A stretch of DNA of 64,000 nt from Chthoniobacterales bacterium (GTDB lineage: Bacteria > Verrucomicrobiota > Verrucomicrobiia > Chthoniobacterales > JAFAMB01): NCBI GenBank assembly GCA_036401335.1, contig DASWVC010000293.1:419-64418 (forward strand), in the 5' to 3' direction. Positions 24,512 through 58,131 of the stretch are shown here, in pieces (positions within the stretch are counted from its first letter, which is position 1; each line of letters begins with the position of its first letter). Below the pieces are notes generated by a model, which made no database searches, was not told where the DNA came from, and was given only the letters and a program-made list of their open reading frames with translations. The position numbers and the translations under genes were made by a program.

Positions 24512-24762
24512 CGGGTAAATTAACGTACCACCCGGGCGCGCGCGAATGCCAAAGCGGCCGACGGGCTTGGGCGGGAGAGTTGGCCCCGTTCGGGTTCACG
24601 GCCGCGGGCCAGCCGGTCGGCCGCCCGGAGCGCGTGTTTGCCATTGGGGAGGAGTTGTGCAACCTCTTTCGCCGTCGCTTGACGTGGAAGGGGCCGGAGT
24701 GAGCCTCTGGGAGCGGACGTTGGCCGATCGCGGCCGCCCGGCGTTGCGCGGTGCGAATACGT

Positions 24763-26031: not shown

Positions 26032-26963
26032 GCTCCGGCGCCGGCTTTTTCCCGGAACCGGCCTGCGAGACAATCGCGTCGAAAGCGCTCGAGCCGCTCC
26101 AGCAAACGTTCTTCGAGGAGATCAAGGCGATGGCGATCGCTCATCGACGGCTGTGCCGTCGCGATCACCCGGCGGAGTGCGCGCCTGGCGTTCACCCGGG
26201 TTACCCGAGTGTGCTGGCGCAAGAAGAAATCGTTGTCGGGCGGCAACTCAAAAAGACGCGGCAACCGGTGCGGACGGTAACTAAGTCCGACGGAATCGCA
26301 CCAATCCAGCCACTTGAACTCGAGAATCCGGTCATCGATGCGTACCGGAACCCACGGATGGCGAAGCGCGTCGGAGACGATCGCCCCGTGCATTGCTTCC
26401 GTAAGAAGCACCTCGCAATCGAGGATTTTGGCAATGACAGTTTCCGGGCTGCCCTGTGGGTCTATGTAACCGATGCCGATGTCTGTGCAAACGCAGCGCC
26501 AGGCGTCGAGGTTATGGTGAAAATGCGGCATAAACGCATATTTGTAGGCTGGGTGCCGCTGAGGTTTAGGGACAAACCGGCGCGCCAGCATCCCGGGATC
26601 GGTGATGGCCAGGTCCACGCTCAGCCCAAGCGCTTCCGCTGACCTCGGGCCACGAAGGCAGTAGACGTGCCACGAAGCATCCAGCACGGGCGCTTCGCCA
26701 TAACCCACGCCGGATCCGAAAACTACTTTTTGCGGGTACCTTTCGATTCCGTGTTTTTGGTTAAGGATCGTTCCTATTCCCAGAAAGACCGTGTCCGCGT
26801 CATCATCGAAGCATTCAGGCACAAGGTGGTCCCAAAGCCAGACATTAAGCTCGTCCCCAAAATTCCTGATTGCACTCCAATAAAATAACCTCATAGGTCC
26901 GGGTGGCACAAGAAAACCGACATCCGCCGGTTGGGCAAGCGCGTAACTTCCGGACAAAAGCAT
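26028..26963 (-). CDS. ExoV-like polysaccharide pyruvyl transferase
   Basis: N-terminal LFYWSAIRNFGDELNVWLWDHLVP and overall size (311 aa) are typical of the ExoV/PS_pyruv_trans family. 4-nt overlap with the convergent wzt end. Confidence 0.8.
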   Translation of the reverse strand: MLLSGSYALAQPADVGFLVPPGPMRLFYWSAIRNFGDELNVWLWDHLVPECFDDDADTVFLGIGTILNQKHGIERYPQKVVFGSGVGYGEAPVLDASWHVYCLRGPRSAEALGLSVDLAITDPGMLARRFVPKPQRHPAYKYAFMPHFHHNLDAWRCVCTDIGIGYIDPQGSPETVIAKILDCEVLLTEAMHGAIVSDALRHPWVPVRIDDRILEFKWLDWCDSVGLSYRPHRLPRLFELPPDNDFFLRQHTRVTRVNARRALRRVIATAQPSMSDRHRLDLLEERLLERLERFRRDCLAGRFREKAGAGA

Positions 26964-27026
26964 GAAGTCCCGCTACGTTAAGGAACCGCTGCCGCGTGAA
27001 CCTTTGCGCACGCCCCGCGTCTGGTC

Positions 27027-27983
27027 GTGAACACTGCTCCGCGCGTCTCGCTCCTCGTGCCGTGTTACAACGCGGGCAAGCACCTGCGGGGCCTGGCTGA
27101 ACAAATTGCGGCGCAGGAACTGCCGTTTGCGGAGGTAATCTGCTACGACGACAACAGCCAGGATGATACCCTTGAGGTGGCCCGTGACCTGGGCTTTTCC
27201 GTTATTGCGGGTGACACAAACCGTGGGGCCGGCTTCGCCCGGAACCGGTTGTGGGAGTCCGCTGCCATGCCGTGGATTCACTTTCATGATGCCGATGACA
27301 CGCTAAGTCCGCGGTACCTCGAGAAGCTAGCGGTCTACCTGGGTGAAGAACCAGCGGCCGTCATGTGCGCCTTCCGCAAGCGTTGGAGCGGTGGCGAGGA
27401 AGCAGACCTGGTTTACCGTTACCCTGACGCCGGAACCGAGACGGACTGGATCACGTTTTTTATCCGGCATTTCGTGCACCTGAATGCCTTCATTTTCCCG
27501 ACGGAAGCGCTCCAGACGACCGGCGGGTTCGCGGAAGACCTCCGCATCGCGGAGGACCGTGAGTTCCTGGTTCGCGCCGCGGCAAAAGGGCTGCGGTTTA
27601 CGTATGTGGACGAATTGCTCGTCGATTGGGTGGTGCACAAAGATTCTACCTTGGGCCGTGCCGCGGAGGCGATTCGGTGGCGGTACGACGGAATTTTTCT
27701 GCGACGTTGCTATGACCTGCTTGATCTACCCCACCGGAAAGCCTTGGGCGAGTATGCCCTGTACCGCGGATGGTGGCTTTTCTGGACCGGCGTGTACCCG
27801 GGAGCGCGAGAAAACATCGAGGTGGCTCAACTGTGCGGGGTGTACCATGCAGACGACGCCAAACTGCTGGAACAACTCTTGAGCCACACGATCGGCACCC
27901 TGCGCTGTTTCGCCCTTAAAAAAGGCTGGGCCCGTCTGAAGGCATGGCTATCCGCTAAACACAGAATGCCCGGCTCTGAATAA
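27027..27983 (+). CDS. family 2 glycosyltransferase
   Basis: VSLLVPCYNAGKHL...VICYDDNSQDDT...HFHDADD. Paralog of 55874..56878. GTG start. Confidence 0.9.
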   Translation: MNTAPRVSLLVPCYNAGKHLRGLAEQIAAQELPFAEVICYDDNSQDDTLEVARDLGFSVIAGDTNRGAGFARNRLWESAAMPWIHFHDADDTLSPRYLEKLAVYLGEEPAAVMCAFRKRWSGGEEADLVYRYPDAGTETDWITFFIRHFVHLNAFIFPTEALQTTGGFAEDLRIAEDREFLVRAAAKGLRFTYVDELLVDWVVHKDSTLGRAAEAIRWRYDGIFLRRCYDLLDLPHRKALGEYALYRGWWLFWTGVYPGARENIEVAQLCGVYHADDAKLLEQLLSHTIGTLRCFALKKGWARLKAWLSAKHRMPGSE

Positions 27984-28192
27984 CAGAGGTTAATGTTGTG
28001 GGCGCTCCCGGCTCGCAGGCTGGTGCCGGCTCGGCAGTGGTATGCCGTCTGGCATTCAGTTCATCGTCGGCCGCAGCCAAACGGCACGTTATTCTCATTA
28101 TTGAGGTACAAAGGGCATGGCAAACAGGACGAAGACTCATCTCTGAGAAGACGCCGCTTGCCATGTTAGGTGGAGGGGATCATGGTCCGGCC

Positions 28193-30052
28193 ATGCCATT
28201 TCCAGGTAATTTACGCTTGACACTCGCTTGCATGGTCAGCGTGATCGCTTCCATGCTGTCCGCCTCGGCAGCCGTCGAGTTCACGTTGGACGGCGCTGGG
28301 TTAGCGACTCTCCAGCATAATAACCAAAATTTTCTGCGTTATTTTCTTGGCCAAACCAAGGGCGATCTATTTGTCTCAGTGTGGAAGGACGGGGCAGCCA
28401 ACTCCCAGTACGAGAATCATTCCCAGACTTCCCTGATCGCGCCGGATACGGTGCAGCAGAGTTACCCCTGGGGCCAGGTGACGTGCACCTACACGGTCGA
28501 TGGCGACGTCCTTCGATTTTCGATTCAGGTCGCGAACCAGAGCCAGAACACGTTGAGCGAGGTCCAGTTGGCACTTGCTGACATTCAGTTTCCCGGCCAG
28601 GCAACGCCAGCGAACTGGGATAACACGAATCCGCCCGGGACGGACAACTACAAGTCTCCGGCCATCCTGGTGGGCGACTACGGCTCGGGCACGTTGGCTC
28701 TGGTGAACGACGACGTGAACACCCGGGCCTGGACGCAATGGTCTTCCCGGTACTACGGTGCATACCCGCTTCGCGTAAGCTACTGGCAGCCGCTGCCGCC
28801 CGGCCAGACCAAGGCGTTCACCATCAGCTTGCGCTGGGGAGAATCGGGCGCCAGTCGCGAGCAGCTTGCCGGCGACGTCTTCGACGCGTTTCAGGAACGC
28901 TATCCGCAACAGCTGGATTGGAAGGACCGGCGGCCGATCGGTTCCGTTTTTCTCGCGTCAGCCAACCGGGAGTGGGCTGACAATCCCCGCGGCTGGTTTA
29001 ACGACGCGAACCTGAACATCTCCAGCCCGGACGGCCAAAATTACTTTCAAACGCACCTGTCTTGGCTGGCCGACCAGATTGTCGGGGAGATGCAGGACAT
29101 GAATGCCCAAGGTTGCGTGGTCTGGGACATTGAAGGTGAGCAATACCCGCAAGGACTCGCCACGTTCATTGGCAATCCCCTGTTGCTGCCGCAGATGGCG
29201 CCGGAAATGGATCCCCTGGCCGACGCTTTTTTTGCCCGGATCAAGCAGGCCGGGTTCCGCGTCGGGGTCACCATCCGCTGCCAGCACCTCGTGCCGTTTT
29301 CCCAAGGCGGTTATGTTCAGGAAGAGTACCCGAACAACGACGCGATCTTCGACGCCATGGACCAGCGCATCATGTACGCGCAGCAACGCTGGGGCTGCAC
29401 GCTTTTTTACTTCGACTCAAATGGCGGCGTGCACGGCTTGTACGACGTCGACATTTTTCGGCGTCTCCGTGCAAAACACCCGGACTGTCTCCTGATTCCC
29501 GAAGCGCAGGACGACTCGTACTACTCCCAGACCGCGCCCTACGAAGAGCTCCGTAAACTGGGTGCGAACCCCGGCACGGACATCACCCCGCCCGGCGTGC
29601 GTGGACTTTACCCGGGAGCGATCACCGTGATCAACACACCTGAGGGCGACACCGTCGGCCGGCGCGGGGACTTGGTGGCAGCCGTTCAGCGCGGCGACAT
29701 TCTGATGTACCGCACCTGGTTCCGCGCCCCTGAATTTTACGATGTGAAGTCCATTTACCAGGAAGGCACCGCAAACGGAGGTGTCGTTGCTTACAACGAC
29801 ATGTTCCAGGTGAGCGCTGGGAATACCCAGACCCTTGATGTTTTGGCCAACGACTTCGACCTGAACCCTTCGGACCCACCGCTCAACGTGGTCTCCTGGA
29901 CCCAGCCGGACATCGGCTCGGTAAGCGTAAACAACAACCAGTTGCAGTTCAGTGCACCCGCAGGAATTACCGGCCAGACGAGCTTCAGCTACACCATCTC
30001 AAACGGCGCGCGATCGGCAACGGCAACGGTAAAGGTTGGCGTTTTTCCGTGA
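28193..30052 (+). CDS. uncharacterised family X protein, long form (signal peptide + N-domain + conserved domain + C-terminal cadherin/VCBS-like domain)
   Basis: Signal LTLACMVSVIASMLSASAA. Family X blocks: DRRPIGS, NPRGW, VVWDIEGEQYP, APEMDPLAD, GFRVGVTIRC, RWGCTLFYFDSN, HPDCLLIPEA, GDILMYRTW. C-terminal 89 aa: AYNDMFQV...LDVLANDFD...FSYTISNG. The ATG at 28193 is preferred over the track start 27998. Confidence 0.85.
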   Translation: MPFPGNLRLTLACMVSVIASMLSASAAVEFTLDGAGLATLQHNNQNFLRYFLGQTKGDLFVSVWKDGAANSQYENHSQTSLIAPDTVQQSYPWGQVTCTYTVDGDVLRFSIQVANQSQNTLSEVQLALADIQFPGQATPANWDNTNPPGTDNYKSPAILVGDYGSGTLALVNDDVNTRAWTQWSSRYYGAYPLRVSYWQPLPPGQTKAFTISLRWGESGASREQLAGDVFDAFQERYPQQLDWKDRRPIGSVFLASANREWADNPRGWFNDANLNISSPDGQNYFQTHLSWLADQIVGEMQDMNAQGCVVWDIEGEQYPQGLATFIGNPLLLPQMAPEMDPLADAFFARIKQAGFRVGVTIRCQHLVPFSQGGYVQEEYPNNDAIFDAMDQRIMYAQQRWGCTLFYFDSNGGVHGLYDVDIFRRLRAKHPDCLLIPEAQDDSYYSQTAPYEELRKLGANPGTDITPPGVRGLYPGAITVINTPEGDTVGRRGDLVAAVQRGDILMYRTWFRAPEFYDVKSIYQEGTANGGVVAYNDMFQVSAGNTQTLDVLANDFDLNPSDPPLNVVSWTQPDIGSVSVNNNQLQFSAPAGITGQTSFSYTISNGARSATATVKVGVFP

Positions 30053-46255: not shown

Positions 46256-47374
46256 TCAGCGCTTGACGGTGGGTGCAGCAATTCGGGCAAACAATTGTTG
46301 CCAGAGAGGCCAGGCATCGGCAAACGTCCATCCCGACCGGAGCACAGGTGGGGGCGACGGCGGCCAACGTTCATACCAGTGCTGCACCCACTCGGCCACG
46401 GCTTCCGCCGCTTCCGGGGCAAAGACGCCGGCGTTTTCCGCCGCCCTTAATTCGGTGGCGATGGCCCCTTGCTCCGGGCCGATAAAGATCAGCGGCCGGG
46501 GCAAACAGACCAGCAGCCCCAGCTTGCTTGGCCAGAGCAGGCCGCGCGTGCACCTTTTCTGGGTGACGACATGGACGTGGGCCGCAAGGAGCGTGTTCGT
46601 GAGTTCAGCCTCCGGCACGTAGGGCCGCCAGACAACCCGGGTAAGTTTGAGCTGAGCCGCCCGGGCCTGGGCCAAGGCGCGTGAGGCTCCCCCACCCTGG
46701 AACGCAAGTGTGACCGGGCAGTGCCTGTCTTCCAGCAGGCGTTGAGCGGTCAGGAGCGTTTCCCACTCGTGCGCTTGTCCGAGGTTGCCGGAGTACAACC
46801 AGGTAAACGAACCCCGGGGTGGGTAGGCCAGGGGCGCCGTGTCTACGGAGGCAAGTTCCTGCAGCAGCCATGGACGGATAACTTCTGCTTCCACGCCGTA
46901 TTTCTGACGGATCCAGGAACGCATGTCCGCGTCCAAACAAACGGTACGCGCATTTGCACGGTAGCCCAACCGTGTCACCGCGAAAAGGAGTGCCTGCAGG
47001 AGTTGAGGGACCGACCAGCCGCCGAGGGCAAGCGCAAGCTCTGGGTAGAGGTCGAGCGCCCAATGGACGGATTTCGCCTGGCGCACCGCTGCGAGCAGGG
47101 ACGCCGTCAGCAGCAAACCCGGCGGGGACGAAGCAGACAGGACCACGTCACAAGGGCCGGCCGCGACGCCCCGGCGGAACAATTGCCAATGGGCATTCAG
47201 CTCTCGCCCCACCCGTGCCGCCTTGTTCCTGGCGCGGACCTCATAGTCCAGGCCCGAGCCGATCAGGGTCACCCGGTGACCGTCCCCGCGCAGGCCGTCG
47301 GCCAGGTCGCCCACCAGTTTTGCGGTGGGAGACAAGTCCGGCGGAACGTACTGGTTAAGGATGACGACGTGCAT
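46256..47374 (-). CDS. GT-B fold glycosyltransferase, family 4 (WcaI-like)
   Basis: MHVVILNQYVPPDLSPTAKLVGDLADGLRGDGHRVTLIGS. The ATG at 47374 is preferred over the track start 47542. It overlaps the upstream acetyltransferase gene by 20 nt. Confidence 0.85.
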   Translation of the reverse strand: MHVVILNQYVPPDLSPTAKLVGDLADGLRGDGHRVTLIGSGLDYEVRARNKAARVGRELNAHWQLFRRGVAAGPCDVVLSASSPPGLLLTASLLAAVRQAKSVHWALDLYPELALALGGWSVPQLLQALLFAVTRLGYRANARTVCLDADMRSWIRQKYGVEAEVIRPWLLQELASVDTAPLAYPPRGSFTWLYSGNLGQAHEWETLLTAQRLLEDRHCPVTLAFQGGGASRALAQARAAQLKLTRVVWRPYVPEAELTNTLLAAHVHVVTQKRCTRGLLWPSKLGLLVCLPRPLIFIGPEQGAIATELRAAENAGVFAPEAAEAVAEWVQHWYERWPPSPPPVLRSGWTFADAWPLWQQLFARIAAPTVKR

Positions 47375-47921
47375 CGTGCAGAGGTCCGATCGGTTTGATC
47401 TGCCGGGCCGGGTTGCCGCCGACGAGACAACCCGGGGGGACGTCTTCCATAACGACGCTGCCCGCAGCCACGACTGAGCCGGCGCCGACCGACACGCCGG
47501 GCCCGACAAAGGCGCTCGCCGCAATCCAGCTGCTTTCACCAACCACGATCGGCTTCGTGATCAAATCGAACGTCTCGCGTCGGAAATCGTGGGAGCCGGT
47601 GCAAAGGTAGCAGCGCTGGGAGAGGCAAACGTTCCGGCCGATGGTTACGGGGGCCAGACTCAAAATCCACACCCCTTCCCCAAGCCAGGCGTCGTCGCCG
47701 ATCTCCAGCCGCCAGGGAAAACTGACTTTGACGTGTGATCGGATGACCACGCCCGTTCCGACGCGAGCACCGAACCAGCGCAGACAAGCCACCTTAAGGG
47801 CGGACGGCCACGGCCAGGGAGTGTCAAAGAAAAGGTTGCGCACCAAAACCCAAAGTGCTTCCCGCCATCGCGGGGCACCCCGGTCGAAGCCGGCATTGGA
47901 AAACTTCCGCAGTTTGATCAT
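47355..47921 (-). CDS. hexapeptide-repeat O-acetyltransferase (WcaF-like)
   Basis: FFDTPWPWPSALKVACLRWFGARVGTGVVIRSHVKVSFPWRLEIGDDAWLGEGVWILSL... is a left-handed beta-helix repeat pattern. Confidence 0.85.
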   Translation of the reverse strand: MIKLRKFSNAGFDRGAPRWREALWVLVRNLFFDTPWPWPSALKVACLRWFGARVGTGVVIRSHVKVSFPWRLEIGDDAWLGEGVWILSLAPVTIGRNVCLSQRCYLCTGSHDFRRETFDLITKPIVVGESSWIAASAFVGPGVSVGAGSVVAAGSVVMEDVPPGCLVGGNPARQIKPIGPLHDARRHP

Positions 47922-48122
47922 CGGTTGATTCCCTGGTGAGGGGTGACCTGCCTCCGATTAACCCAGGGCTCCCACGCGAGCAAATGCATCCGCAGACAGG
48001 GCACCGGGTCGAGCGGAGGTTCGGCAGGGCGGCAATTCCCTTCGCCCCCGCCCAGTCGGCCGGGGCCGGTCCCCGCGCTTTCCATCCCAACCCCGTTATC
48101 TTGATGCCCTTTCCCCGTCACC

Positions 48123-48151
48123 TTGACCTGCAAGCCAACCGCCCTTAAAAG
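48123..48151 (+). promoter_or_regulatory. candidate sigma70-like promoter for the exosortase gene
   Basis: TTGACC - 17 nt - TAAAAG, ending 13 nt before the ATG at 48164. Consensus rules for this unknown phylum are uncertain. Confidence 0.2.
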
Positions 48152-48163
48152 GTCCGCAGCAGG

Positions 48164-49750
48164 ATGGCAAGCGCGACGCAGGAAAAAAATTCATCAGGAA
48201 GGTGGTTTGCAGCGGGCACCCTGGCCGTTGTCCTCCTGTACGGATGGAGCCTCTTCCTATGGCACCTCTCGGTGTTTTGGCGCATGCTGCCGGATTACGC
48301 TTACGGCTGGGCGGTGCCGGTCCTGACGCTCATCCTGTTGGGGCGCCGCCGCCACGCCCTCGGACCACCGGCTGGCCTGCTCGACCCGCAGACGGCTTTA
48401 GCGACGGCGTTCCTCACCCTGCTCTACCTTCCCCTTCGGATCGTTCTGGACGCAAACCTGGACTGGCGGCCCGCGGCTTGGGTCCTGGCCGCTCTGGTCG
48501 TGGTTCAAACGCTGCTCCTCGTCCACCTCGTGGGGGGACCGCGCTGGTCGCGGTGGTTGGCTTTTCCCCTTCTGTTTACCCTTACCGGGGTGCCGTGGCT
48601 GGGCCGTTTGGAAATCCCAATCACCACGGGGCTGATGCACTTCGGCGCTTTTGTTGCGACGGAAGTCCTCAACGCGCTCGGCGTCGCGGCCGACCAGCGC
48701 GGGAACGTGATTGAGACAACTGCAGGCTTCATCGGGGTCGATGAGGCCTGCAGCGGCATCAAGAGCCTGCAAACCATGGTGATGATCGGCTTTTTTCTGT
48801 CCGATTTTACCTCCTGGAGGGGCTGGCGGCGGGTCCTCGTCGTCCTGGCCGGTGGAGCCCTGGCTACGACGGCCAATCTTTTGCGCATCCTGGTGCTTGC
48901 GCTCGTGGGGAGCCGGAATGGCCAGGCCGGCATCGAAGGCTGGCACGACGTCACCGGCACACTGGCCTTCGCGGCGGCCTGCGCAGGCCTTTTGTTCCTG
49001 GTGCGGCAGTTGCCGGCCGCACGTCCGGCCGTTGTCTCCCCGGGAGCGCCCCGGTCTACTCCGCGCCCCGTCCGGCCGTCGGTGATCGGCTGTGGGGCTT
49101 TCGCCGCGGTGTTTCTGGCGGGGACGGAAGTGGTCCGCTGGCACTGGTTCCGGGAGGCGGCGCCCGTGGCGTCCTCAGCCTGGACGGTAACGTGGCCGGA
49201 CCACCTCGAAGCACGGGTCGTCCACGTCTCGAGTGCCGTGCGTCAACAACTGCAATGCGATCAGGGGGATGCTATGGCTTGGTCAAACGAGCCGGGCACC
49301 CGTTGGATCGGGTATTACTTTACGTGGAACCCCGGTTTGCAGGCCTATTTTGCCCGGAGCCAGCACGCGCCGGAGATTTGCCTGCCGGCGACGGGTCGGC
49401 GATTGACCGCCGATGCCGGGTATTTTGATTTCCCGGCACCGGTCAAAGTGCTGCGGGTCCGCCATTTAGTTTTTGACGATGAAGCGGGTCCGCTTAACGT
49501 GTTTTTCATTGTGGACGGCTCAGCGGTGCGGGACACGGACCAGCAACTGCACTCGGACACGTGGCGGGTGCGGTTAGGAAACGTGATGGCGCACAAGAAA
49601 GAAGCTGACCGCCGTTCCCTGGAGTTGATTGCGGCAGGATACGCGGTGCCTGAAGAAGCAGCGGAGGCCGCAAAACGCTGGCTGCGCACGCTGATCCAAC
49701 CGGAAGAGAAAGGCATGGCGACGGGAACCCAGGCGTCAACAGGTCAATAG
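48164..49750 (+). CDS. exosortase (EpsH family) fused to a C-terminal EpsI-like domain
   Basis: Polytopic N-terminal half with catalytic-Cys context VDEACSGIKSLQ, then NLLRILVLAL and GWHDVTG. The C-terminal half carries the EpsI-type block SQHAPEICLPATG. Confidence 0.9.
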   Translation: MASATQEKNSSGRWFAAGTLAVVLLYGWSLFLWHLSVFWRMLPDYAYGWAVPVLTLILLGRRRHALGPPAGLLDPQTALATAFLTLLYLPLRIVLDANLDWRPAAWVLAALVVVQTLLLVHLVGGPRWSRWLAFPLLFTLTGVPWLGRLEIPITTGLMHFGAFVATEVLNALGVAADQRGNVIETTAGFIGVDEACSGIKSLQTMVMIGFFLSDFTSWRGWRRVLVVLAGGALATTANLLRILVLALVGSRNGQAGIEGWHDVTGTLAFAAACAGLLFLVRQLPAARPAVVSPGAPRSTPRPVRPSVIGCGAFAAVFLAGTEVVRWHWFREAAPVASSAWTVTWPDHLEARVVHVSSAVRQQLQCDQGDAMAWSNEPGTRWIGYYFTWNPGLQAYFARSQHAPEICLPATGRRLTADAGYFDFPAPVKVLRVRHLVFDDEAGPLNVFFIVDGSAVRDTDQQLHSDTWRVRLGNVMAHKKEADRRSLELIAAGYAVPEEAAEAAKRWLRTLIQPEEKGMATGTQASTGQ

Positions 49751-49919
49751 GCGGCACGGCACTGCATCGGGCTAAGGGCGGAGAACGTCTGAACTACCAT
49801 AACTTTAATAGCCTAACGTAAATAAATTTGATCATTAATGGTGCGCAACGTGCGACCTCTGCTAACCTTCGCCGGTGGATAAGGGGGGCCCACAGTCTCC
49901 TTCAAAGCAAGGACAACAT

Positions 49920-50690
49920 ATGAAGAAATTGTGGTTAACGGGTGTTGCGGCAATCCTGGGAGCGTCTGGGGTCGCTGCTAGTGCCAGCGTTGTGACGCTC
50001 GACTGGAATAAGGTGGCGCAAGGGACCCTGCAAAAACAGGGCTCCTCCTATACCGAACTGGTCAATGTCGGGGGTGGCGAGGTCGAGGTTTCGGTTGCGC
50101 CAAGCGGTGCAGTCAGCCCAAATCGCTTCGGTTTAGCCGGGCTGCAAACGCCTGCGGTGACAAATACCATCTTTCAGGGTGGGCTGAGTTCCAACTTCAG
50201 CAATCTGTCGACCGTGGCAAATTTCAATCCCGGCCGTGGCAGCGACCCGACACTGACGTTCACGATCGATTTCCTCGGCTTCAAGCAGGGAGTCAGCAAC
50301 GTGAACTTCTCGTTGTTCGATGTCGATTCGATGCCGAACCGGTTTGTGGACCAGATTACGTTTCGCACGGCCGGGGCGAGCCTGACCGGCAGCGCGGCCA
50401 ATGTGGTTGCGGGAAATACGGTGCGGGGTGTGGCCATGTCTCCTAACCTTGGTGCCGGCAGCGGAGAGGGCAACGTTGGGGTGAAGTACGGCAACCTGCC
50501 GTCGCATGAGATCGTGTTTACCTACACCAGCCCTACGGCGAACCAGGTTTTGCACGGGTTCGGGCTGGGCAACATCTCGTTCACACCGGTGCCGGAGGTG
50601 AACCAACTGGCGATCGGGTTAGCGGCATGTGTTTTAGGTGCAGTCTGGCTGCGGCGGACCGGTCGACGAAGGGCCGTGACGCTCGCCTGA
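49920..50690 (+). CDS. PEP-CTERM sorting-signal protein (VPEV variant)
   Basis: Signal peptide MKKLWLTGVAAILGASGVAASA. The C-terminus FTPVPEVNQ-LAIGLAACVLGAVWL-RRTGRRR has the motif, TM helix and basic cluster. AAGGA lies before the ATG at 49920. Confidence 0.85.
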   Translation: MKKLWLTGVAAILGASGVAASASVVTLDWNKVAQGTLQKQGSSYTELVNVGGGEVEVSVAPSGAVSPNRFGLAGLQTPAVTNTIFQGGLSSNFSNLSTVANFNPGRGSDPTLTFTIDFLGFKQGVSNVNFSLFDVDSMPNRFVDQITFRTAGASLTGSAANVVAGNTVRGVAMSPNLGAGSGEGNVGVKYGNLPSHEIVFTYTSPTANQVLHGFGLGNISFTPVPEVNQLAIGLAACVLGAVWLRRTGRRRAVTLA

Positions 50691-50724
50691 GCCTGGCAAA
50701 GGGACCTGACGTCTTGAGTCAATA

Positions 50725-50763
50725 CCCTCGGAGACGGCGGCGTCTCCGGGGGTTTTTGTTTTT
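50725..50763 (+). terminator. Rho-independent terminator after the PEP-CTERM gene
   Basis: CCCTCGGAGACG gcgg CGTCTCCGGGGG (8 perfect bp, extendable to 12 with one wobble), followed by TTTTTGTTTTT. Confidence 0.8.
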
Positions 50764-50849
50764 CGCAGGCCGAGGGCGGCCATGACCACGGCGAAAAACG
50801 CGTGCATCCTTCGCTCCTTGAACCTTGAAGGACCTGCTTCCCGCTCTTT

Positions 50850-52541
50850 ATGCGTATACGGTTGCCGTGTTTCGTGGCGCTTGGGCTGCTTATGGGCTGC
50901 GCACTGCCTGGTCCGGCTCTGGGCGGTCCCCTCACCCGGTACCGGCTTTGGCAAAGCCAGCAATCGACCAACGCTGCGCTGAAGGCGTTTCGGAACAAAA
51001 AGTTCGAAGAGGCGGAAATCGACACCCGGCGGGCATTGCAGCTCAATCCGTTGAACCTGCAAGCCCTTGACCTGATGGCGCAGCTAAGCGCCCCCAGTTC
51101 ACCTCAGGTGTCGCTGAAACTGCGGCTGCGCATTACCCAATTCATGCCGCACTCAGCCGAGGCCTGGCTGAACGTGGCCGAGGCGGCCGTTGCGGCCGGC
51201 GAGTTCGAAACTGCCCGGAATGCCCTTCAGAAAGTGCCCGTGTCGGGCCGTGGAATACGGTTCCTTCGAGATTCCGGCAACCTGGCGCTTGGCATGAACG
51301 ATCGGCCGGAGGCCATGAAATTTTTTTCGGCCGCCGTGCACGTTCCGGGAGCGGTTGGGGCCGACCACTTCAACCTGGACGCGCTGACGCTCTTTTCCGG
51401 TCGTGAGGAAGAGGTGGCGGCTGCCCGGGAAGACCTGGAAAGGTTAACCGGCAGCCCTGAACTGGCGTCGAAAAGTCATCGGCTGCTCGCTTCCTTTTAC
51501 ATCACTCACGAAATGCCAGACCGTGCCCGAGGGCACGTTGACTACCTGCTGGGCCTGCCGCAGGTTCAATTTGAGGACGTCCTCCTGGCCTTGGACCTGT
51601 TTCAAGCGTCGGATCCGCCGAAGTACCGCGAGCTTCTCGGCAACTGTTTTGAACGTTTCAAGCGGGAGGCCCTGCCGGCCTCACAATTGGTGCGTTGGTT
51701 GAACGAGAAGAACCTCCTGGAGGATGCACGGGCGAGCAGGGCCAAGGTTGACCCTGCCGTCGCCCTGGATCCCGTTTACCAAGCGGCGTTGGCCGACACG
51801 TTTGTGCGTGCACGGGATTGGACCGGCCTCCAGGAATGGAGCAAAGGGGATCCCGCGTGGGGCGTAAACGAGTACTTGCGGATTGCCTACCAGTTGAAAG
51901 CCCGACGCGAACTCAACGCCATTACGATTTCAGAAGCTTCCAACGAGTGGCAGCGCGCCCTCTCCCGTGCCGACAAGCATGCGGACTGGACGGCTGCACT
52001 CTATCACCTTGCACTCAGCTGGGGATGGCGGAAGGAAGCGGAAAAGAGCTTGTGGGCCGCAGCGGACGGGACCGTCGCTCCGCGGGATGCCTTGCATGTG
52101 CTCTGGCGATGGTACGAACAGGATAAAGACACGAGCGGGCTTTTCCGCGTGGCAAACCGGATGCTTGAACTCAACTACAACGACCGGAACGCCCGCAACA
52201 ACGTGGTCATGCTGGGTTCGCTGCTCGGCATCGACAATCACGCCTTCCGTGAATGGGCAAGGGAGGATTGGGAGACCGATGGAGGCAAAAACCCGCAATT
52301 CGGGACGACTTACGCCTACATTCTGTACCGGCAAGGAAACGTGGAAGACGCGGTCCGGGTCCTGGATGGCATTGGCCCCGAGGCGTTCCAGAACCCGTCG
52401 GACGCACTTTATGCGGGCGTGATCCGCGCTGCTTCCGGCAACCGGGAGGACGCCAGGCGGTTGCTCGAGAAAGCTTCCGACGCGAACCTGTTGCCGGAGG
52501 AAAAGCAGCTGTTGGCGCAGGGCCGTTCACTGTTAGAATGA
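50850..52541 (+). CDS. TPR-repeat lipoprotein (PEP-CTERM-system-associated type)
   Basis: Lipobox-like signal MRIRLPCFVALGLLMGC. Multiple TPR-like helical pairs follow (RRALQLNPLNLQALDLMAQL, AEAWLNVAEAAVAAGEFETA ...). Confidence 0.8.
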   Translation: MRIRLPCFVALGLLMGCALPGPALGGPLTRYRLWQSQQSTNAALKAFRNKKFEEAEIDTRRALQLNPLNLQALDLMAQLSAPSSPQVSLKLRLRITQFMPHSAEAWLNVAEAAVAAGEFETARNALQKVPVSGRGIRFLRDSGNLALGMNDRPEAMKFFSAAVHVPGAVGADHFNLDALTLFSGREEEVAAAREDLERLTGSPELASKSHRLLASFYITHEMPDRARGHVDYLLGLPQVQFEDVLLALDLFQASDPPKYRELLGNCFERFKREALPASQLVRWLNEKNLLEDARASRAKVDPAVALDPVYQAALADTFVRARDWTGLQEWSKGDPAWGVNEYLRIAYQLKARRELNAITISEASNEWQRALSRADKHADWTAALYHLALSWGWRKEAEKSLWAAADGTVAPRDALHVLWRWYEQDKDTSGLFRVANRMLELNYNDRNARNNVVMLGSLLGIDNHAFREWAREDWETDGGKNPQFGTTYAYILYRQGNVEDAVRVLDGIGPEAFQNPSDALYAGVIRAASGNREDARRLLEKASDANLLPEEKQLLAQGRSLLE

Positions 52542-52574
52542 CCGGAGGCGGCATGGCCGCAGGGAGGTTGATCG

Positions 52575-53426
52575 ATGCAGACGAAGGAGCAATACGAGAT
52601 TGAGATCCGGCCAAGCCAGAGCTGGCTGAAGTTGAACTGGAGGGACCTGGTCGAGTTCCGCGACCTGTTCCTGCTGTTAGTCCGGCGCGATTTCGTAGTT
52701 AAGTACAAACAAACGCTGCTCGGCCCGCTCTGGTTTCTGATCCAACCCTTGCTTACGACCGTGGTGTTCACCGTCATTTTCGGCGGGGTTGCCAAGATGC
52801 CGACCAACGGCGTACCCCCGATGCTGTTTTACCTCAGCGGGTTGACCATCTGGTCCTATTTTTCTCAGTGCGTCAACGTTAACTCCATGACGTTTCTGAG
52901 CAATTCGGCACTGTTTTCGAAAGTGTTTTTTCCGCGATTGATTTTGCCGTTAAGCACGACGACGTCGAACTTGTTTGCGTTGGGGGTCCAATTGATCAGC
53001 CTGATTGCGTTCACCACTTATTTCAAGGTGGCAGGCGCGCCCGTCCACCCCCATCTCCTGGCCCTGGTCACAGTGCCGCTCCTGGTGTTGCAGGCAGGGG
53101 TGCTTGCGCTCGGGTTCGGGCTTCTGTTCGCCTCGTTTACGGCCAAATACCAGGACCTGGTGCATTTGCTCGCCTTCGGCGTGCAAATCTGGATGTACGC
53201 AAGCCCGATCATCTATCCGGCTTCCCACATCCCGGCGAAGTTTGCCTGGCTGATCTGGGCGAACCCGGTGGCCCCATTGATCGAGAATTTCAGGGCGGCC
53301 TTTCTGGGCACTCCCGCGGAATCGATGCAGAACACGTTGTGCTCCGTCGCACTCACCGTCATTGTGTTGGGCATCGGTCTGCTGCAGTACCAGCGGGCCG
53401 AACGCACGTTCGTCGACACGATCTGA
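52575..53426 (+). CDS. wzm: polysaccharide ABC exporter permease (ABC-2/Wzm)
   Basis: FRDLFLLLVRRDFVVKYKQTLLGPLWFLIQPLL, followed by 6 TM segments. Confidence 0.9.
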   Translation: MQTKEQYEIEIRPSQSWLKLNWRDLVEFRDLFLLLVRRDFVVKYKQTLLGPLWFLIQPLLTTVVFTVIFGGVAKMPTNGVPPMLFYLSGLTIWSYFSQCVNVNSMTFLSNSALFSKVFFPRLILPLSTTTSNLFALGVQLISLIAFTTYFKVAGAPVHPHLLALVTVPLLVLQAGVLALGFGLLFASFTAKYQDLVHLLAFGVQIWMYASPIIYPASHIPAKFAWLIWANPVAPLIENFRAAFLGTPAESMQNTLCSVALTVIVLGIGLLQYQRAERTFVDTI

Positions 53427-53525
53427 AAGCGGCCCGCTTTGCCGGGCAGACCGGCGGGCACGAACGACGCGCAGCCTCTACCGAAAGCACCGGGGGCCTC
53501 CGCTCCCCGCGGCGCCCCTCCTGAG

Positions 53526-54818
53526 ATGAACATTCTGGTGGACAACGGCGATCCTGAGCTCACTAACCTCGGCGATTACGCGATGCTTTCGGCAGCCTGC
53601 CAGGAAATCGGCTTGGCCTGGCCGAAAGCCAGCTTGTTTACCTTTGCTTCCCGCCCGGAGCGGCTCGCGGAACTCCTTCCGGGCGTTCGCCCGGTTCCTA
53701 CCCTGGGCCGCGACCTCTGGTCCCGGCTGGCGGCGCTCGGGTGGTTCTGGGAGAGCAGGTTTCCCCGGTCCAGAAGGCTGGCGCAGCAATACCGTCTTTT
53801 TACGAGCCGCCCGTCTGCCGCGTTGCTCGCGCGCCTGACCGCGCCCGCTACGAAAGGCGGCCCGGAAGCGGTGCGCCAATTCTTAAGGTTCCTCCGTCGG
53901 GTGGATCTCTACTTTTGGTGCGGGGGCGGTTACCTGACGGACCCGTTCGGTTCCCTGGCCACAAAACTGGCCAATACGCTGGAAGTGCTGACCAGCCGGA
54001 CGGTTCCCGCCGCTGCCTTCGGCCTGGGGGTTGGGCCGCTGCACCGGCCCCGCATCCACGCCGCCGTGCGCTCCGCGATGGGTAATTTTCAGGCCGTGGG
54101 GTTGCGCGACCATGATTCCGCCCGGCAGCTTAAGGAATGGGGCATCGAGCAGGGGCGCGTCCGGGTGACGGGTGACGATGCACTGTCAACGGCGGAACGG
54201 CACACCCCTCCAGACCTTGGCACCTGGTTGGGAATCAGTTTCCGACACAGTTATTACTCCGGGTTCAGCCCTGAGCGGATGGTGCCGCTGACGGCGCGGC
54301 TGCCGGATTTCTGTGCGCGTCACCGCGCCGCCATGGCTTCCATCCCGATTGCCCGCGCGGACCTGTCGGCAAACTGGGGCCTGCGTTCAACCAGCGTTTC
54401 GTTCTACCAACCGCCTTTCGACCTTGCGTCCGTGCTCGACGCCGTCGGCCACTGCCGGCTGGTTGTAACCGCCTCCTACCATGCCGCGGTGTTCGCCCTG
54501 GCCATGGGTGTATCGGTGGTTGCGGTGACGGCCTCAGGGTATTACGCCCTCAAGTTCACCGGTCTGCAACGGTCGTTCGGAGGTCTGCTTCCGGTCATCC
54601 CGCTGCCGCTGCCTTCGGATGCGGCAGGCAACGAACGCCTTCTGGGTCAGATGGAAGAGAGCTGGCGCCGGGCCCCACAAGTGAGGGGAGAGTTGCAGGA
54701 CCGGGCGCGGCAACAGATTGAGGTGAACCGTCGCTTTCGCCACGAGGTTTTCGCGGAGCTGAGGCGGGAGACGGACGCAGTGCACGGAACCGTCGGCCAA
54801 CGGCAGGCTCACGGCTGA
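53526..54818 (+). CDS. polysaccharide pyruvyl transferase family protein
   Basis: MNILVDNGDPELTNLGDYAML, CGGGYLTDPF, ASYHAAVFALAMGVSVVAV. Paralog of 34078..35415. The track start 53439 is rejected. Confidence 0.85.
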   Translation: MNILVDNGDPELTNLGDYAMLSAACQEIGLAWPKASLFTFASRPERLAELLPGVRPVPTLGRDLWSRLAALGWFWESRFPRSRRLAQQYRLFTSRPSAALLARLTAPATKGGPEAVRQFLRFLRRVDLYFWCGGGYLTDPFGSLATKLANTLEVLTSRTVPAAAFGLGVGPLHRPRIHAAVRSAMGNFQAVGLRDHDSARQLKEWGIEQGRVRVTGDDALSTAERHTPPDLGTWLGISFRHSYYSGFSPERMVPLTARLPDFCARHRAAMASIPIARADLSANWGLRSTSVSFYQPPFDLASVLDAVGHCRLVVTASYHAAVFALAMGVSVVAVTASGYYALKFTGLQRSFGGLLPVIPLPLPSDAAGNERLLGQMEESWRRAPQVRGELQDRARQQIEVNRRFRHEVFAELRRETDAVHGTVGQRQAHG

Positions 54819-54891
54819 GGGCGTCTGAAGGCGGAGATGCCTCGCCTGCACTTGCGGACCTCGGGAGGCTGTGGGTAGGATTAAACGAAGA

Positions 54892-55812
54892 ATGAGAGTG
54901 ACCATTGGCATCCCGGTGTACAACTGCGAACGCTGGATTACAGCGACCATCCAGTCCGCCCTTGACCAGTCGTGGCCGGACAAGGAGGTGGTGGTGGTGG
55001 ATGACGGTTCCTTCGACGCTACGCCCCGCCTGTGCCGGGAGTTTGGTTCCAAGATTCGCTTCACCGCGCAGGGACGCAAAGGCGGCAACGCGGCGCGCAA
55101 CCGGATCATCGAGGCGGCGACGGGTGAGTTCATCCAGTTTCTGGATGCGGATGACGCGTTGCCTGCAGACAAAATCGAAGCCCAACTGGAATCCGGCACC
55201 CGTGCCGATGTGCTGTGCAGCCCGGTGCGCTTCGAGACCTGGAGCAACGGTCAACCGGTGCAGACGGATCTGCAGGTTCTGCCCGACCCGCTGGATTGGA
55301 AGGCGGAATGGCTGCGGTGGAACCTTCCTCAGACCGGCGGCTGCCTCTGGCGCAAATCGGCGCTGGTCCGCATCGATGGCTGGAACCAGCGCTTTCACTG
55401 CAACCAGGAATACGAGCTCTATTTTCGGGCGTTCAAGGCGGGCCTCCGCTTCCGTCGGGTACATGCGCCGGCAGCTATTTACCGGCTCTGGTCGGAAAAC
55501 ACGGTGTGCCGAAAGGACAAAGCGGGGGTGATCGAATCCAAGACGCAGCTGATCAGCAGCTTTCTGGACTGGCTGCGAACGCAGGGTGAAGAAACCGCAG
55601 CGTACCGGCGCCTGGCCGGCATCGCCTGCTTTGAGATGGCCCGTTCCCTGGCCGTGCAGGATCTGGAACGGGCTCGGCGGTATTTTCAAGCCCGGCGAAG
55701 CGAAGGGTTGATCACTCCCGAAGGTCCCGCCGCTCCTTGGAAATACCGGCTGCTCCTTCAGTTGCTCGGTTTTTCAGCCGCGGAACGGCTGGCCAAAGCG
55801 AGCCGGTCCTGA
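54892..55812 (+). CDS. family 2 glycosyltransferase
   Basis: MRVTIGIPVYNCERWITATIQSALDQSWPDKEVVVVDDGSFD...FLDADD. Paralog of 38729..39679. Confidence 0.9.
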   Translation: MRVTIGIPVYNCERWITATIQSALDQSWPDKEVVVVDDGSFDATPRLCREFGSKIRFTAQGRKGGNAARNRIIEAATGEFIQFLDADDALPADKIEAQLESGTRADVLCSPVRFETWSNGQPVQTDLQVLPDPLDWKAEWLRWNLPQTGGCLWRKSALVRIDGWNQRFHCNQEYELYFRAFKAGLRFRRVHAPAAIYRLWSENTVCRKDKAGVIESKTQLISSFLDWLRTQGEETAAYRRLAGIACFEMARSLAVQDLERARRYFQARRSEGLITPEGPAAPWKYRLLLQLLGFSAAERLAKASRS

Positions 55813-55873
55813 GCGACTGAAGGCACCGTTCACCCAGGCAGGTGCGATCGAGTCGACGCGTGCTGGGATAAGC

Positions 55874-56878
55874 ATGGCGCAACCCCGCGATCTGATGACC
55901 AAACCGATTTCCCTTTTGATTCCCTGTTATAACTCGGCCCGTTTTCTGCCGGGTTTGTTCGACCAGATCCACCGGCAGACCGTGCCCTTTGCGGAAATCA
56001 TTGTCTACGATGACCACAGCGCGGACGGTTCGGCTGCCGTCGCTGAGGCCCTTGGCGCGAGGGTGTTACGAGGCAAGGCCACACGCGGTCCGGGATTTGC
56101 CCGGAATCGCCTGCTGGAAGCAGCCGGTAAACCGTTCCTGCACTACCACGATGCCGACGACGGGGTGGAACCGCTCTTCGTGGAGAAAATGAGCCGGGCC
56201 TTGGACTCGGATCGGCATGGAACGGTTTGCGCCCTCCGGATCGTTCACCTCGACCACGCCGAGGCGGATTACGTGCTTCGGTTCCCGGAAATCGCTGCCC
56301 ATGCGGATCTCGTCGGATTCATGATCCGTACGTTCATCCACTTCGATGCCATGGTCGTTCCGCGACGGTTGTTGGTTGAGGCCGGCGGCTTTGTCGACCA
56401 GATGCGGTTTAGCGAAGACCGGGACTTGCTGGCACGGCTGGCCGCCACCGGAATCGCTTTCAATTACGTCGACGAACCGTTGGCCACCTGGACCAAGCAC
56501 GGGGCTTCCCTGACGCGCTCGCGTCCGACCCTTGCGCAGGCCCCGTACCGTCGCTGGTACCTTCACCGGTGTTACCGCAAACTCCCTTCGCAACACCGTC
56601 CCGCCATTGGGGACATGGCCTTGTACGTGGCCTGGATGTTCTACCACGATGCCCGTGGCCGGGAAGCCCGGGCCTACCGCGAGGAAGCCCGCCGCTGGAT
56701 GTACCTCGCCCGCCTTTGCCGCCGTCGCTACGGGCGTTCCGCTTCCTGGCCGGAAAAACTGCTCGCGCAGGGTTTCGGTCCAGAAGTGGCCTTCTTCGTT
56801 CGCCGGATGCACGCTGCCGCCCGGGGCCGGTTGGATGGTTCTCCGCGCAAAATCCAAAGCCCGACGGCACGCCCGTAG
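55874..56878 (+). CDS. family 2 glycosyltransferase
   Basis: ISLLIPCYNSARFL...IIVYDDHSADGS...HYHDADD. Paralog of 27027..27983. Confidence 0.9.
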   Translation: MAQPRDLMTKPISLLIPCYNSARFLPGLFDQIHRQTVPFAEIIVYDDHSADGSAAVAEALGARVLRGKATRGPGFARNRLLEAAGKPFLHYHDADDGVEPLFVEKMSRALDSDRHGTVCALRIVHLDHAEADYVLRFPEIAAHADLVGFMIRTFIHFDAMVVPRRLLVEAGGFVDQMRFSEDRDLLARLAATGIAFNYVDEPLATWTKHGASLTRSRPTLAQAPYRRWYLHRCYRKLPSQHRPAIGDMALYVAWMFYHDARGREARAYREEARRWMYLARLCRRRYGRSASWPEKLLAQGFGPEVAFFVRRMHAAARGRLDGSPRKIQSPTARP

Positions 56879-56889
56879 CGGCACCCGCC

Positions 56890-58131
56890 ATGCAGATCGC
56901 GTTTATCGTTGCGGGATTCCCCATTGCTTCGGAAACCTTTATTCTGAATCAGATCACGGGCCTTCTGCAACGCGGCCATCAAGTCGACGTGTTCGCCCAG
57001 TGGCGGGATACCGGGAGCGGCCCGCATCCGGACGTGACCCGCTTCCGGCTCGTGGAGCGCACCTTTTACCTGCACGTGAGCCCCCACCGTACCGCTCGCC
57101 TGCTGTCAGCCCTGGACGCCCTCGGCCGCGCGATGTCGCGCGGGCAACTCCGCATCTTCCGGGCGTTGGACCCGAGGCGCTTCGGCCGGCAGGCGCTGAA
57201 CCTCCGGGTGCTCAACCAGATGCGCCCCTTTATCGGCCGGCCGGCTTACGCCGTCGTGCACTGCCATTTCGGGCCTTCCGGCGTGATCGGCGACACGGTG
57301 CGCCAACTCGGTCTCACGGCCGCACCTTTGCTGACCACCTTTCACGGCTACGACATTTCGTCGTTTGTCCGGGAGCGCGGCCCGGAGGTGTACAAAAACC
57401 TTTTCCGGGATGGTGATGCCTTTACATGCTCCAGCCAGTTTATCCGCAACCGCTTGGTGAGCGCAGGGTGTCCGGCCCCCAGGATCCACCTGTTTAAGTT
57501 GGGCACCGACCTGAAAAAGTTCAGCTTTACCGCACGGGTTCCGGACGAGACGGGCGCCGTCCGACTGGTGACGGTGGCGCGGCTAACCGAGAAAAAGGGG
57601 CTTGAGTACTCAATTCGTGCGTTTGCCAAACTGGCGGCGCGCTTTCCTTTGCTGGAGTACAACATTGTCGGCGACGGCGATCAACGGAAACCGTTGGAAC
57701 GGCTGCTGAACGGGCTTGGACTTAACGGCAGGGTCAGGTTGCTGGGCTGGCGCACCGACCCTGAGGTACGGGAAATTTATGCCCGCTCCCACCTGTTTGT
57801 CCTGTCCAGCGTGGAAGCTGCCAACGGAGACATTGAAGGTCAGGGCATGGTGCTGCAGGAAGCCCAAGCCATGGGGCTGCCGGTGGTGTGCAGCCGGCAC
57901 AATGGCTTTCCGGAAGGCATCTTGGAGAATGAGTCCGGCTTTCTGGTGCCGGAGCGGGATGCAGACGCCCTCGCCGCCTGTCTAACCACCCTTTTGCAAC
58001 GTCCAGGCACCTGGCCCGAAATGGGCCAGCGCGGCCGGGCCTACGTCGAGGCGGAGTACGACCTTGAAAAGCGCAACGACGCACTCGTGGCGCTTTACGA
58101 CGAGTTACGGGCCCGGAGGGCACGACCGTAG
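56890..58131 (+). CDS. GT-B fold glycosyltransferase, family 4 (WcaL-like)
   Basis: MQIAFIVAGFPIASETFILNQITGLLQRGHQVDVFA. EX7E region EGQGMVLQEAQAMGLPVV. The ATG at 56890 is preferred over the track start 56569. Confidence 0.9.
   Translation: MQIAFIVAGFPIASETFILNQITGLLQRGHQVDVFAQWRDTGSGPHPDVTRFRLVERTFYLHVSPHRTARLLSALDALGRAMSRGQLRIFRALDPRRFGRQALNLRVLNQMRPFIGRPAYAVVHCHFGPSGVIGDTVRQLGLTAAPLLTTFHGYDISSFVRERGPEVYKNLFRDGDAFTCSSQFIRNRLVSAGCPAPRIHLFKLGTDLKKFSFTARVPDETGAVRLVTVARLTEKKGLEYSIRAFAKLAARFPLLEYNIVGDGDQRKPLERLLNGLGLNGRVRLLGWRTDPEVREIYARSHLFVLSSVEAANGDIEGQGMVLQEAQAMGLPVVCSRHNGFPEGILENESGFLVPERDADALAACLTTLLQRPGTWPEMGQRGRAYVEAEYDLEKRNDALVALYDELRARRARP

Follow-up and report, generated by a model that had tools for sequence, protein, structure and literature searches.

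The 64-kb window analyzed here (the whole stretch of 64,000 nucleotides, part of a 93-kb contig from a soil metagenome-assembled genome (MAG) of Chthoniobacterales, Verrucomicrobiota, locus-tag prefix VGD78) harbors genes for an exosortase, for a small secreted protein with a C-terminal sorting signal (hereafter, the cargo) and for a tetratricopeptide repeat (TPR) protein. We consider it likely that these genes form a conserved verrucomicrobial sorting cassette, in which an exosortase of an unnamed subtype, carrying an EpsI-like domain, is accompanied in cis by a beta-sandwich cargo and a TPR partner and serves a regulon of few substrates. The three proteins are exactly matched by the entries HEY0792700.1-HEY0792702.1 (the last two tagged VGD78_16685 and VGD78_16690), for which the NCBI labels are only "exosortase/archaeosortase family protein" and "hypothetical protein." The arguments are as follows.

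A scan with the cargo profile, applied to one genome per GTDB species, yielded 79 loci, nearly all of them from Chthoniobacterales or other Verrucomicrobiota, whose six-frame open reading frames (ORFs) were searched with the exosortase hidden Markov model (HMM), the cargo HMM and, as a single query, the TPR protein. Among the 36 loci with an exosortase of this clade, a TPR homolog is encoded within 7 kb in 33 and a cargo family member within 7 kb in 32, the latter usually directly adjoining the exosortase gene, the TPR protein being the most consistent linked partner of the clade. Over 30 genomes of Chthoniobacterales/Verrucomicrobiota thus possess the three-gene cassette. The closest relatives (L001, L006 and L007, 55-60% identity) have the gene order and orientation of the window, with complete synteny in L001 (58% identity); the syntenic block comprises genes of a hexapeptide acetyltransferase and a family 4 glycosyltransferase (GT4), the cassette, and genes of an ABC-2 permease, a pyruvyl transferase, two GT2 and one more GT4. 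In a larger and more distant clade, with cargo about 30-35% identical, the exosortase gene is transcribed divergently from the cargo-TPR pair. Homologs of the polysaccharide genes of the window occur near the cassette in at most 3 of 35 loci and are absent from the distant clade, so a conserved linkage of the cassette to wzm, glycosyltransferase and pyruvyl transferase genes was rejected outside the closest clade. The first-pass annotation, which placed wzm after the TPR gene, was right about the adjacent ABC-2 permease in the window, a linkage that is kept only in the closest clade. The recurring neighbors in the distant clade are a Wza-like export protein, a chain-length-determinant-like protein, a beta-barrel outer membrane protein, a hybrid histidine kinase and a 409-aa secreted protein. 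In NCBIfam they come closest, always below threshold, to families of XrtA/XrtB loci (pepcterm_export, pepcterm_ChnLen, TIGR03016/EpsL, PrsT). Since the trio is linked across loci while the neighboring polysaccharide genes differ between clades, the core of the system is the exosortase, the TPR protein and the cargo, and polysaccharide genes are its frequent but variable context.

The exosortase had been recognized from the sequence contexts DEACSGIKSL (C196), NLLRI (R241) and GWHDVTG (H261), and this call is borne out by scores of 130.9 bits with PF09721 (cutoff 25.7) and 58.5 bits with TIGR04178 (cutoff 23). Cys196, Arg241 and His261 are invariant in an alignment of 22 sequences reaching down to 23% identity; a Cys/Arg/His set is the putative catalytic triad proposed for the exosortase family (Haft, 2023 preprint). 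The AlphaFold2 (AF2) model of the enzyme (pLDDT, predicted local distance difference test, 86.9; pTM, predicted template modeling score, 0.85) consists of a polytopic helical core (aa 1-281), an extra transmembrane (TM) helix (aa 305-328) and a periplasmic alpha/beta globular domain (aa ~340-513), and its helical bundle agrees with the polytopic architecture of about eight TM helices expected of exosortases. Sequence searches of the PDB with both family profiles gave no match. As to the subtype, which the first-pass annotation left unassigned, none of the approximately 20 named NCBIfam subtype models (XrtA-XrtX, CrtA-C) reaches its cutoff with the window enzyme: the best scores are 93 bits for XrtD (cutoff 400), 90.7 for XrtA (208), 70.7 for XrtW (425) and 65.4 for XrtV (313), and the generic 8TM_EpsH model TIGR02602 gives 92.1 bits against a cutoff of 105.55. 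The exosortase of a distant-clade locus, L021, likewise stays under all subtype cutoffs. Judging by its sequence, the window enzyme is an exosortase of an unnamed subtype.

The domain fused to the C-terminus of this enzyme appears, with moderate confidence, to be a diverged EpsI-like domain, so that the initial proposal of a fused periplasmic domain of this type is supported, although the EpsI models themselves miss it: neither PF11984 nor TIGR02914 matches the whole protein or the isolated C-terminal domain at E ≤ 10. The assignment is made because of a shared invariant motif, a bridging sequence and a profile alignment. The motif H401-x-P403-E-x-C406-L-P-x-x-G411 (in the window protein, SQHAPEICLPATG, aa 399-411) is invariant across the 22-sequence alignment, including the PF11984-positive members P0030, P0031 and P0034. 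PF11984 matches 5 of these 22 proteins, the most distant ones (best E = 4e-61), and P0028, which is 34% identical over 93% of the query, gives a weak PF11984 match and bridges both groups. Comparison of the PF11984-negative with the PF11984-positive clade by hhalign aligned 114 columns round the motif (P = 1e-4, probability 56%). A Foldseek search of the PDB with the exosortase model found no significant neighbor. The best local fold likeness of the EpsI-like domain is to Mog1/PsbP-like sandwiches, among them the Eag chaperones SciW and EagT6 as well as LpqN, at the non-significant level of E 0.1-0.8 and target TM-scores of 0.45-0.53. The Eag chaperones bind transmembrane helices of effectors of the type VI secretion system, and the resemblance hints at a possible role of the EpsI-like domain in binding hydrophobic segments. 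The fusion as such is not new. Homology to EpsI at the C-terminus was already described for a number of EpsH proteins, and TIGR02914 was designed to include EpsI whether fused or adjacent (Haft et al., 2006, PMC1569441); the remark of the first-pass annotation that EpsI is normally a separate gene therefore overstated the novelty of an arrangement known since 2006.

The TPR partner scores 40.8 bits with TPR_2 and 34.2 bits with TPR_19, and TPR_1 is also above its cutoff, whereas the PrsT model TIGR02917 gives only 25.6 bits against a cutoff of 312.2 (44.2 for the distant ortholog of L035). Its N-terminus is a signal or an anchor with the lipobox-like sequence LLMGC, in which Met at position -2 is atypical. 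Orthologs do not keep this sequence: the close ones begin with plain signal peptides without Cys, the distant ones with a single N-terminal TM anchor. Of the initial description of a lipobox TPR protein, the repeats are real, but the lipoprotein status is not conserved.

The cargo is composed of a signal peptide (aa 1-~24, MKKLW...ASA, with cleavage at ASA|SV), a beta-sandwich of about 200 aa and a C-terminal sorting signal. Its mature part is rich in Gly, Val, Ser and Asn (13.8, 11.2, 10.2, and 9.2%) and contains no domain known to Pfam or NCBIfam, exactly as noted at first reading; none of the 61 homologs retrieved from a word-indexed database has a Pfam domain either. A profile search over 1.84 billion cluster representatives extended the family to 992 representatives at E ≤ 1e-3, 143 of them at E ≤ 1e-30. 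In the confident AF2 model (pLDDT 90.6) aa ~25-223, after the signal-peptide helix, fold as a beta-sandwich, and aa 229-255 form a C-terminal helix. The mature beta-sandwich includes a conserved F-x-L-F-D-V-D block. In the PDB, Foldseek found only weak similarities of a generic beta-sandwich type (E about 1e-3, TM-score about 0.3); among them are carbohydrate-binding modules (CBM27, 61, 11, 35, and 6) and lectin-like adhesins (Sgo0707, the V domain of SspB/antigen I/II, gingipain adhesin domains). The predicted fold is compatible with glycan binding by the mature cargo.

The C-terminus of the cargo reads FTPVPEVNQ-LAIGLAACVLGAVWL-RRTGRRR, its motif abutting the predicted helix; such abutment of a sorting motif and a TM helix is the arrangement described for exosortase-cleaved signals (Haft, 2023 preprint). 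Together with the N-terminal signal peptide, the cargo thus has the tripartite layout of PEP-CTERM type, i.e., motif, TM helix and basic cluster. In an alignment of 45 family members F221, V224, P225 and E226 are invariant, and T222, P223 and C237 are kept in at least 90% of the sequences. The near-invariant Pro-Glu-Pro expected of PEP-CTERM is not present; the tail sequence confirms that PEV stands in its place, as was initially noted, and in the family the position after Glu is taken by I, V, M, A or F, with P in a minority. In genomic copies of the cargo this residue is mostly I, V, M or A, with Pro in 5 of about 85, and among cluster representatives it is V in 40, I in 23, P in 19 and A in 15 (n = 122). 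Neither TIGR02595 nor PF07589 matches the cargo or its isolated tail at E ≤ 10, and TIGR02595 matches 0 of the 45 family members at E ≤ 1. The first-pass annotation had named a failure of the HMMs on the exosortase or the PEP-CTERM domain as grounds for refutation; the former was called, but the latter was not. Despite this, the tail is in all probability a genuine sorting signal of a different flavor, because it is nearly invariant throughout the family of about 1000 representatives.

A canonical VPEP occurs on the same mature domain in a few relatives, namely in Cyanobacteria (L081, L083) and in a Verrucomicrobiales MAG (L079). Because the same mature domain carries VPEP in Cyanobacteria and Verrucomicrobiales, the flavor of the signal seems to track lineage and sortase and not the cargo domain. 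In L050 (8553-9921, minus strand) two adjoining unrelated genes of about 210 aa have the tails VPEPSTLALIF and VVPETSTWVM, respectively, and therefore both flavors coexist in one Chthoniobacterales genome; the idea that they represent a P/T swap within one family was discarded, as they are not paralogs (BLASTP E = 0.1, tail only). One more peculiarity of the tail is Cys237 (window positions 50628-50630) in the middle of the TM helix, which is nearly invariant in the cargo family and absent from the VPEM family described below; contact with the enzyme and a modification are possibilities.

No other PEP-CTERM-like tail was found in the 64-kb window. However, the substrates of this type of enzyme are hardly limited to its neighbor. 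The same MAG encodes, on a 3.9-kb contig, a second cargo paralog, VGD78_18560 (P0038), which is 66% identical and has the tail FTVVPEVNQ (FTVVPEVNQLAVGLAAC...). Six cassettes (L012, L016, L020, L028, L031, and L076) contain two tandem cargo paralogs, and in about 40 loci there are orphan paralogs with no exosortase within 10 kb, many of them in genomes that also bear a cassette (QHNH L015/L068, JBHELY L009/L070, DASQPH L019/L065). Unrelated proteins share the tail as well. In L003 three proteins with VPE[A/T] tails flank a 41%-identical exosortase, and in L005 one such protein lies beside a 34%-identical exosortase. Giant proteins of 2657 aa (L031:965-8938, minus strand) and 1062 aa (L067:2210-5398, minus strand) are encoded in cassettes and end in TPVPE[V/M]NP...C..., like the small cargo, including the helix Cys. 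A further family of about 223 aa, highly conserved and verrucomicrobial, ends in ...ADLPAVPEMNALLPI...RKRRR (hereafter, VPEM family); its homologs number 482, no Pfam domain is found in it, and Glu is followed by a residue other than Pro in all 120 of the matches listed. Its gene is located about 1 kb upstream of ten orphan paralogs (L049, 8653-9399, plus strand; L041, L047, L052, L061, L064, L065, L070, L074, and L077), forming with them a conserved two-gene pair of VPEx-tailed proteins away from any exosortase; no VGD78 member is present among the 120 matches listed. The tail is thus common to unrelated proteins in sortase-bearing relatives, and the source MAG shows only the second paralog. 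Given the second paralog, the tandem and orphan paralogs and the unrelated proteins with the same tail, the ratio of enzyme to substrates appears to be one-to-few, with one beta-sandwich member kept in cis. The one-enzyme/one-substrate pair initially proposed is retained as far as the cognate adjacent substrate is concerned, but its exclusivity is contradicted by VGD78_18560, by the tandem and orphan paralogs and by the unrelated same-tailed families.

The operation of the cassette can be imagined as follows. The cargo, whose signal peptide is readable in the sequence, would be exported by Sec, as is usual for the family, and then be held in the inner membrane by the helix at its C-terminus, RRTGRRR lying in the cytoplasm, as its tripartite architecture suggests. 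The exosortase would recognize F-T-P-V-P-E-[V/I/M/A] at the periplasmic face of the membrane and cleave it by means of Cys196, Arg241 and His261; the conservation of this triad is directly observed, and the cleavage chemistry is supposed by analogy with the exosortase/archaeosortase family. The mature lectin-like domain would then be either released or passed to an acceptor, which may belong to the cell surface or to the exopolysaccharide matrix, and its faint fold resemblances suggest that it may bind glycans or the matrix. The EpsI-like domain and the TPR protein, to judge from their linkage, are probably accessory and may handle the substrate or the acceptor. The enzyme would serve a small regulon with non-PEP "VPEx" tails, one beta-sandwich member of which is almost always found beside it.

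A strictly dedicated pair, in which the exosortase processes the adjacent 256-aa protein alone, could be put forward on the grounds that enzyme and cargo adjoin in 32 of 36 loci, that the window has a single tail of this kind, that the flanks of L001, L006 and L007 contain no other VPEx-tailed gene and that adjacent enzyme-target systems are a recognized pattern (PMC3237569; Haft, 2023 preprint). At the level of single proteins it is already contradicted by VGD78_18560 on another contig of the same MAG, and the tandem and orphan paralogs and the unrelated same-tailed families of related genomes speak against it too, so we regard it as quite improbable. Far less credible still, to the point of being nearly negligible, is the view of the C-terminal helix as a permanent anchor, which would make the beta-sandwich protein, held in the inner membrane, a partner of the exosortase/TPR machinery on the periplasmic side, or a regulator of it, and not a substrate. 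The nearly invariant C237 could indeed mean a helix-helix or disulfide contact with the enzyme. But the invariant residues are concentrated in the extramembrane FTPVPE, just where exosortase signals carry their signature; the tail is shared by unrelated proteins, including the giants of 1062-2657 aa, as is typical of a sorting signal; and orphan paralogs are encoded far from any exosortase.

It is more difficult to separate the cassette from an ordinary PEP-CTERM/XrtA-type system whose motif is relaxed in Verrucomicrobiota and whose exosortase is a general one, so that the distinction of a subtype would be functionally meaningless. The best-scoring models are XrtA, XrtD and the generic 8TM_EpsH, the last close to its cutoff (92 of 105.5 bits); the distant-clade neighbors resemble components of XrtA/XrtB loci; Pro follows Glu in a minority of sequences (5 of about 85 genomic copies, 19 of 122 representatives); VPEP and VPET tails occur on adjoining genes in L050; and Verrucomicrobium spinosum has 65 PEP-CTERM proteins (PMC1569441). 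Nevertheless, XrtA stops at 91 of 208 bits and every other subtype model also stays short of its cutoff, 0 of 45 family members match TIGR02595 at E ≤ 1, two large families show strong selection against Pro (0 of 120 listed in one of them), the same mature domain bears VPEP in Cyanobacteria, and the cassette is conserved as a whole, its own TPR partner included. We therefore consider this explanation unlikely.

Several points weigh against our reading of the locus as a cassette with its own signal flavor. As the PEP-CTERM HMMs miss the tail, the status of the cargo as a substrate is deduced from architecture, conservation and linkage; the assignment of the EpsI-like domain is indirect (the hhalign probability being 56%), and the carbohydrate-binding role of the cargo leans on weak fold matches (TM-score about 0.3). 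Pro after Glu is tolerated in at least one cassette copy (VPEPNP in L054), and some of these genomes (L050, L076) also encode canonical VPEP tails, so the VPEx flavor may not be a strict determinant of specificity. Finally, every source organism is an uncultured MAG. Taking all this into account, the cassette with a few-substrate regulon remains the reading we favor. A bolder version of it, of which we are somewhat less than half convinced, would recognize a new exosortase subtype with its own VPEx-CTERM class, F-[TS]-P-V-P-E-[I/V/M/A]-[N/G]-[P/Q], often with the helix Cys, in which the TPR protein would be an obligatory co-factor and the lectin-like protein the founding cargo linking cells to exopolysaccharide.

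Comparison with known systems places the cassette among them. The XrtA/PEP-CTERM system of exopolysaccharide loci consists of the EpsH exosortase, EpsI, the TPR lipoprotein PrsT and PEP-CTERM substrates (PMC1569441). The window system shares with it a polytopic enzyme of the EpsH family with the Cys/Arg/His triad, an EpsI-like domain and a nearby TPR gene, substrates that have a signal peptide and end in a tripartite tail, its motif directly adjoining the TM helix, and a location in or near polysaccharide genes, the distant-clade neighbors resembling pepcterm_export, ChnLen and EpsL. It differs in the scores of the enzyme (91 against a cutoff of 208) and of the TPR partner (25.6 against 312 for PrsT), in a tail that is missed by TIGR02595/PF07589 and has V, I, M or A and not Pro as the third motif residue, and in keeping one cargo family beside the enzyme. 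Besides, the TPR partner is about 560 aa long (the PrsT profile has 899 positions) and is not consistently a lipoprotein, and no PrsK/PrsR pair was seen in the window.

XrtD/VPLPA-CTERM and XrtC/VPDSG-CTERM are exosortase subfamilies whose target sets are marked by different signal flavors (Haft, 2023 preprint), and the window system works like XrtA/PEP-CTERM and like these variant pairs. With XrtD/VPLPA-CTERM (TIGR04152, TIGR03370) it has in common a long fused exosortase paired with a non-PEP flavor, and XrtD is its best NCBIfam match, reaching into the C-terminal domain (aa 41-416 against profile positions 6-385 of 486); yet the score is 93 against 400 bits, the signal is VPE[V/I/M/A] and not VPLPA, and of 45 cargo homologs only one, at E = 0.05, matches the VPLPA-CTERM model. 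XrtW, XrtT, XrtO and XrtJ, too, are long exosortases to which a C-terminal domain is fused, as it is in the window enzyme. The adjacency of enzyme and target in a conserved cassette recalls dedicated systems such as the rhombosortase/GlyGly-CTERM singletons and MrtJ/JDVT-CTERM (PMC3237569; Haft, 2023 preprint), but the target here is not unique per genome, the relation being one-to-few with a privileged cis member. As for the tail itself, the only curated model matching it is NF038120 (PEP_CTERM_QFxxD), with E = 0.012 on the isolated tail and 8 of 45 family members at E ≤ 1 (best 1.8e-5); the score of the tail is, however, 15.4 bits against a cutoff of 80, and the match is confined to positions 183-214 of 215. 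In general, the system is real, coherent and currently unmodeled, and conceptually it is incremental.

The features of the cassette and the adjoining permease gene are listed in Table 1. The four ORFs named in the first-pass annotation were all found where it had placed them.

Table 1. Features of the sorting cassette and the adjoining permease gene (window positions).
Feature	Coordinates	Strand	Evidence and remarks
Exosortase, 528 aa	48164..49750	+	PF09721, TIGR04178, invariant triad, AF2 model
EpsI-like domain (probable) fused to exosortase	49181..49702	+	invariant motif; PF11984-related, diverged
AT-rich intergenic spacer before cargo gene	49751..49919	+	sequence inspection
Cargo protein, 256 aa from ATG	49920..50690	+	family homologs, AF2; alternative upstream GTG start at 49875
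Predicted tripartite sorting signal of cargo	50580..50690	+	alignment and tail tables
TPR-repeat partner, 563 aa	50850..52541	+	TPR_2, TPR_19, TPR_1 above cutoffs; linkage
ABC-2 type (Wzm-like) permease, 283 aa	52575..53426	+	PF01061, 66.2 bits

The spacer preceding the cargo gene contains a sigma-54-like element of doubtful significance, TGGTGCGCAACGTGC (TGG-N9-TGC), at 49839-49853, 81 nt before the cargo start. A sigma-54 promoter in this spacer was rejected: of 77 upstream regions, 10 have the pattern, shuffled ones gave 4.4 +/- 2.0, and the closest relatives lack it. The loci L011, L026 and L042 have in common a better site of the TGGCA[C/T] type at -35 to -37.

The polysaccharide locus of the window is split into two parts (24751-30052 and 46256-58131). 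The upstream half encodes an ABC ATPase of Wzt type (24751-26031, with a YSSGM signature) together with a pyruvyl transferase, a GT2 and a Big_9 protein, and this Wzt-side block lies about 26 kb upstream of the Wzm-like permease; between the two halves there are about 16 kb of unrelated genes (amidase, deacetylase, short-chain dehydrogenase/reductase, CobW, Usp). In the relative L001 the Big_9/GT2 block is located directly upstream of the cassette. Two GT4 ORFs of the window (46256-47542, minus strand, and 56569-58131, plus strand) were called with starts far upstream of the likely ones, MHVVILNQ... and MQIAFIVAGFP..., respectively, hence their spurious overlaps with the neighboring acetyltransferase and GT2 genes. 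In L003 (1-21584) the 41%-identical exosortase forms a pair with a TPR gene among Prim-Pol/AAA_25 and phage-integrase genes; an integrative element may carry this module.

Among environmental bacteria, exosortase systems occur widely and are tied to biofilm and floc formation, and Chthoniobacterales are one of the most abundant soil lineages. The present analysis adds to these systems an exosortase subtype from Chthoniobacterales that is not yet modeled, and turns two large families hitherto called "hypothetical proteins," one with about 1000 and the other with about 480 representatives, into probable sorted surface or matrix proteins. As the generic PEP-CTERM HMMs miss a whole flavor of the signal, the substrate counts for Verrucomicrobiota are too low. 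Heterologous reconstitution could conveniently start from this compact set of exosortase, cargo and TPR protein, and, if the VPEx-CTERM subtype proves true, the set would serve as a minimal model in which to ask to what exosortases attach their substrates, given that its cargo is small and well folded and is encoded beside the enzyme.

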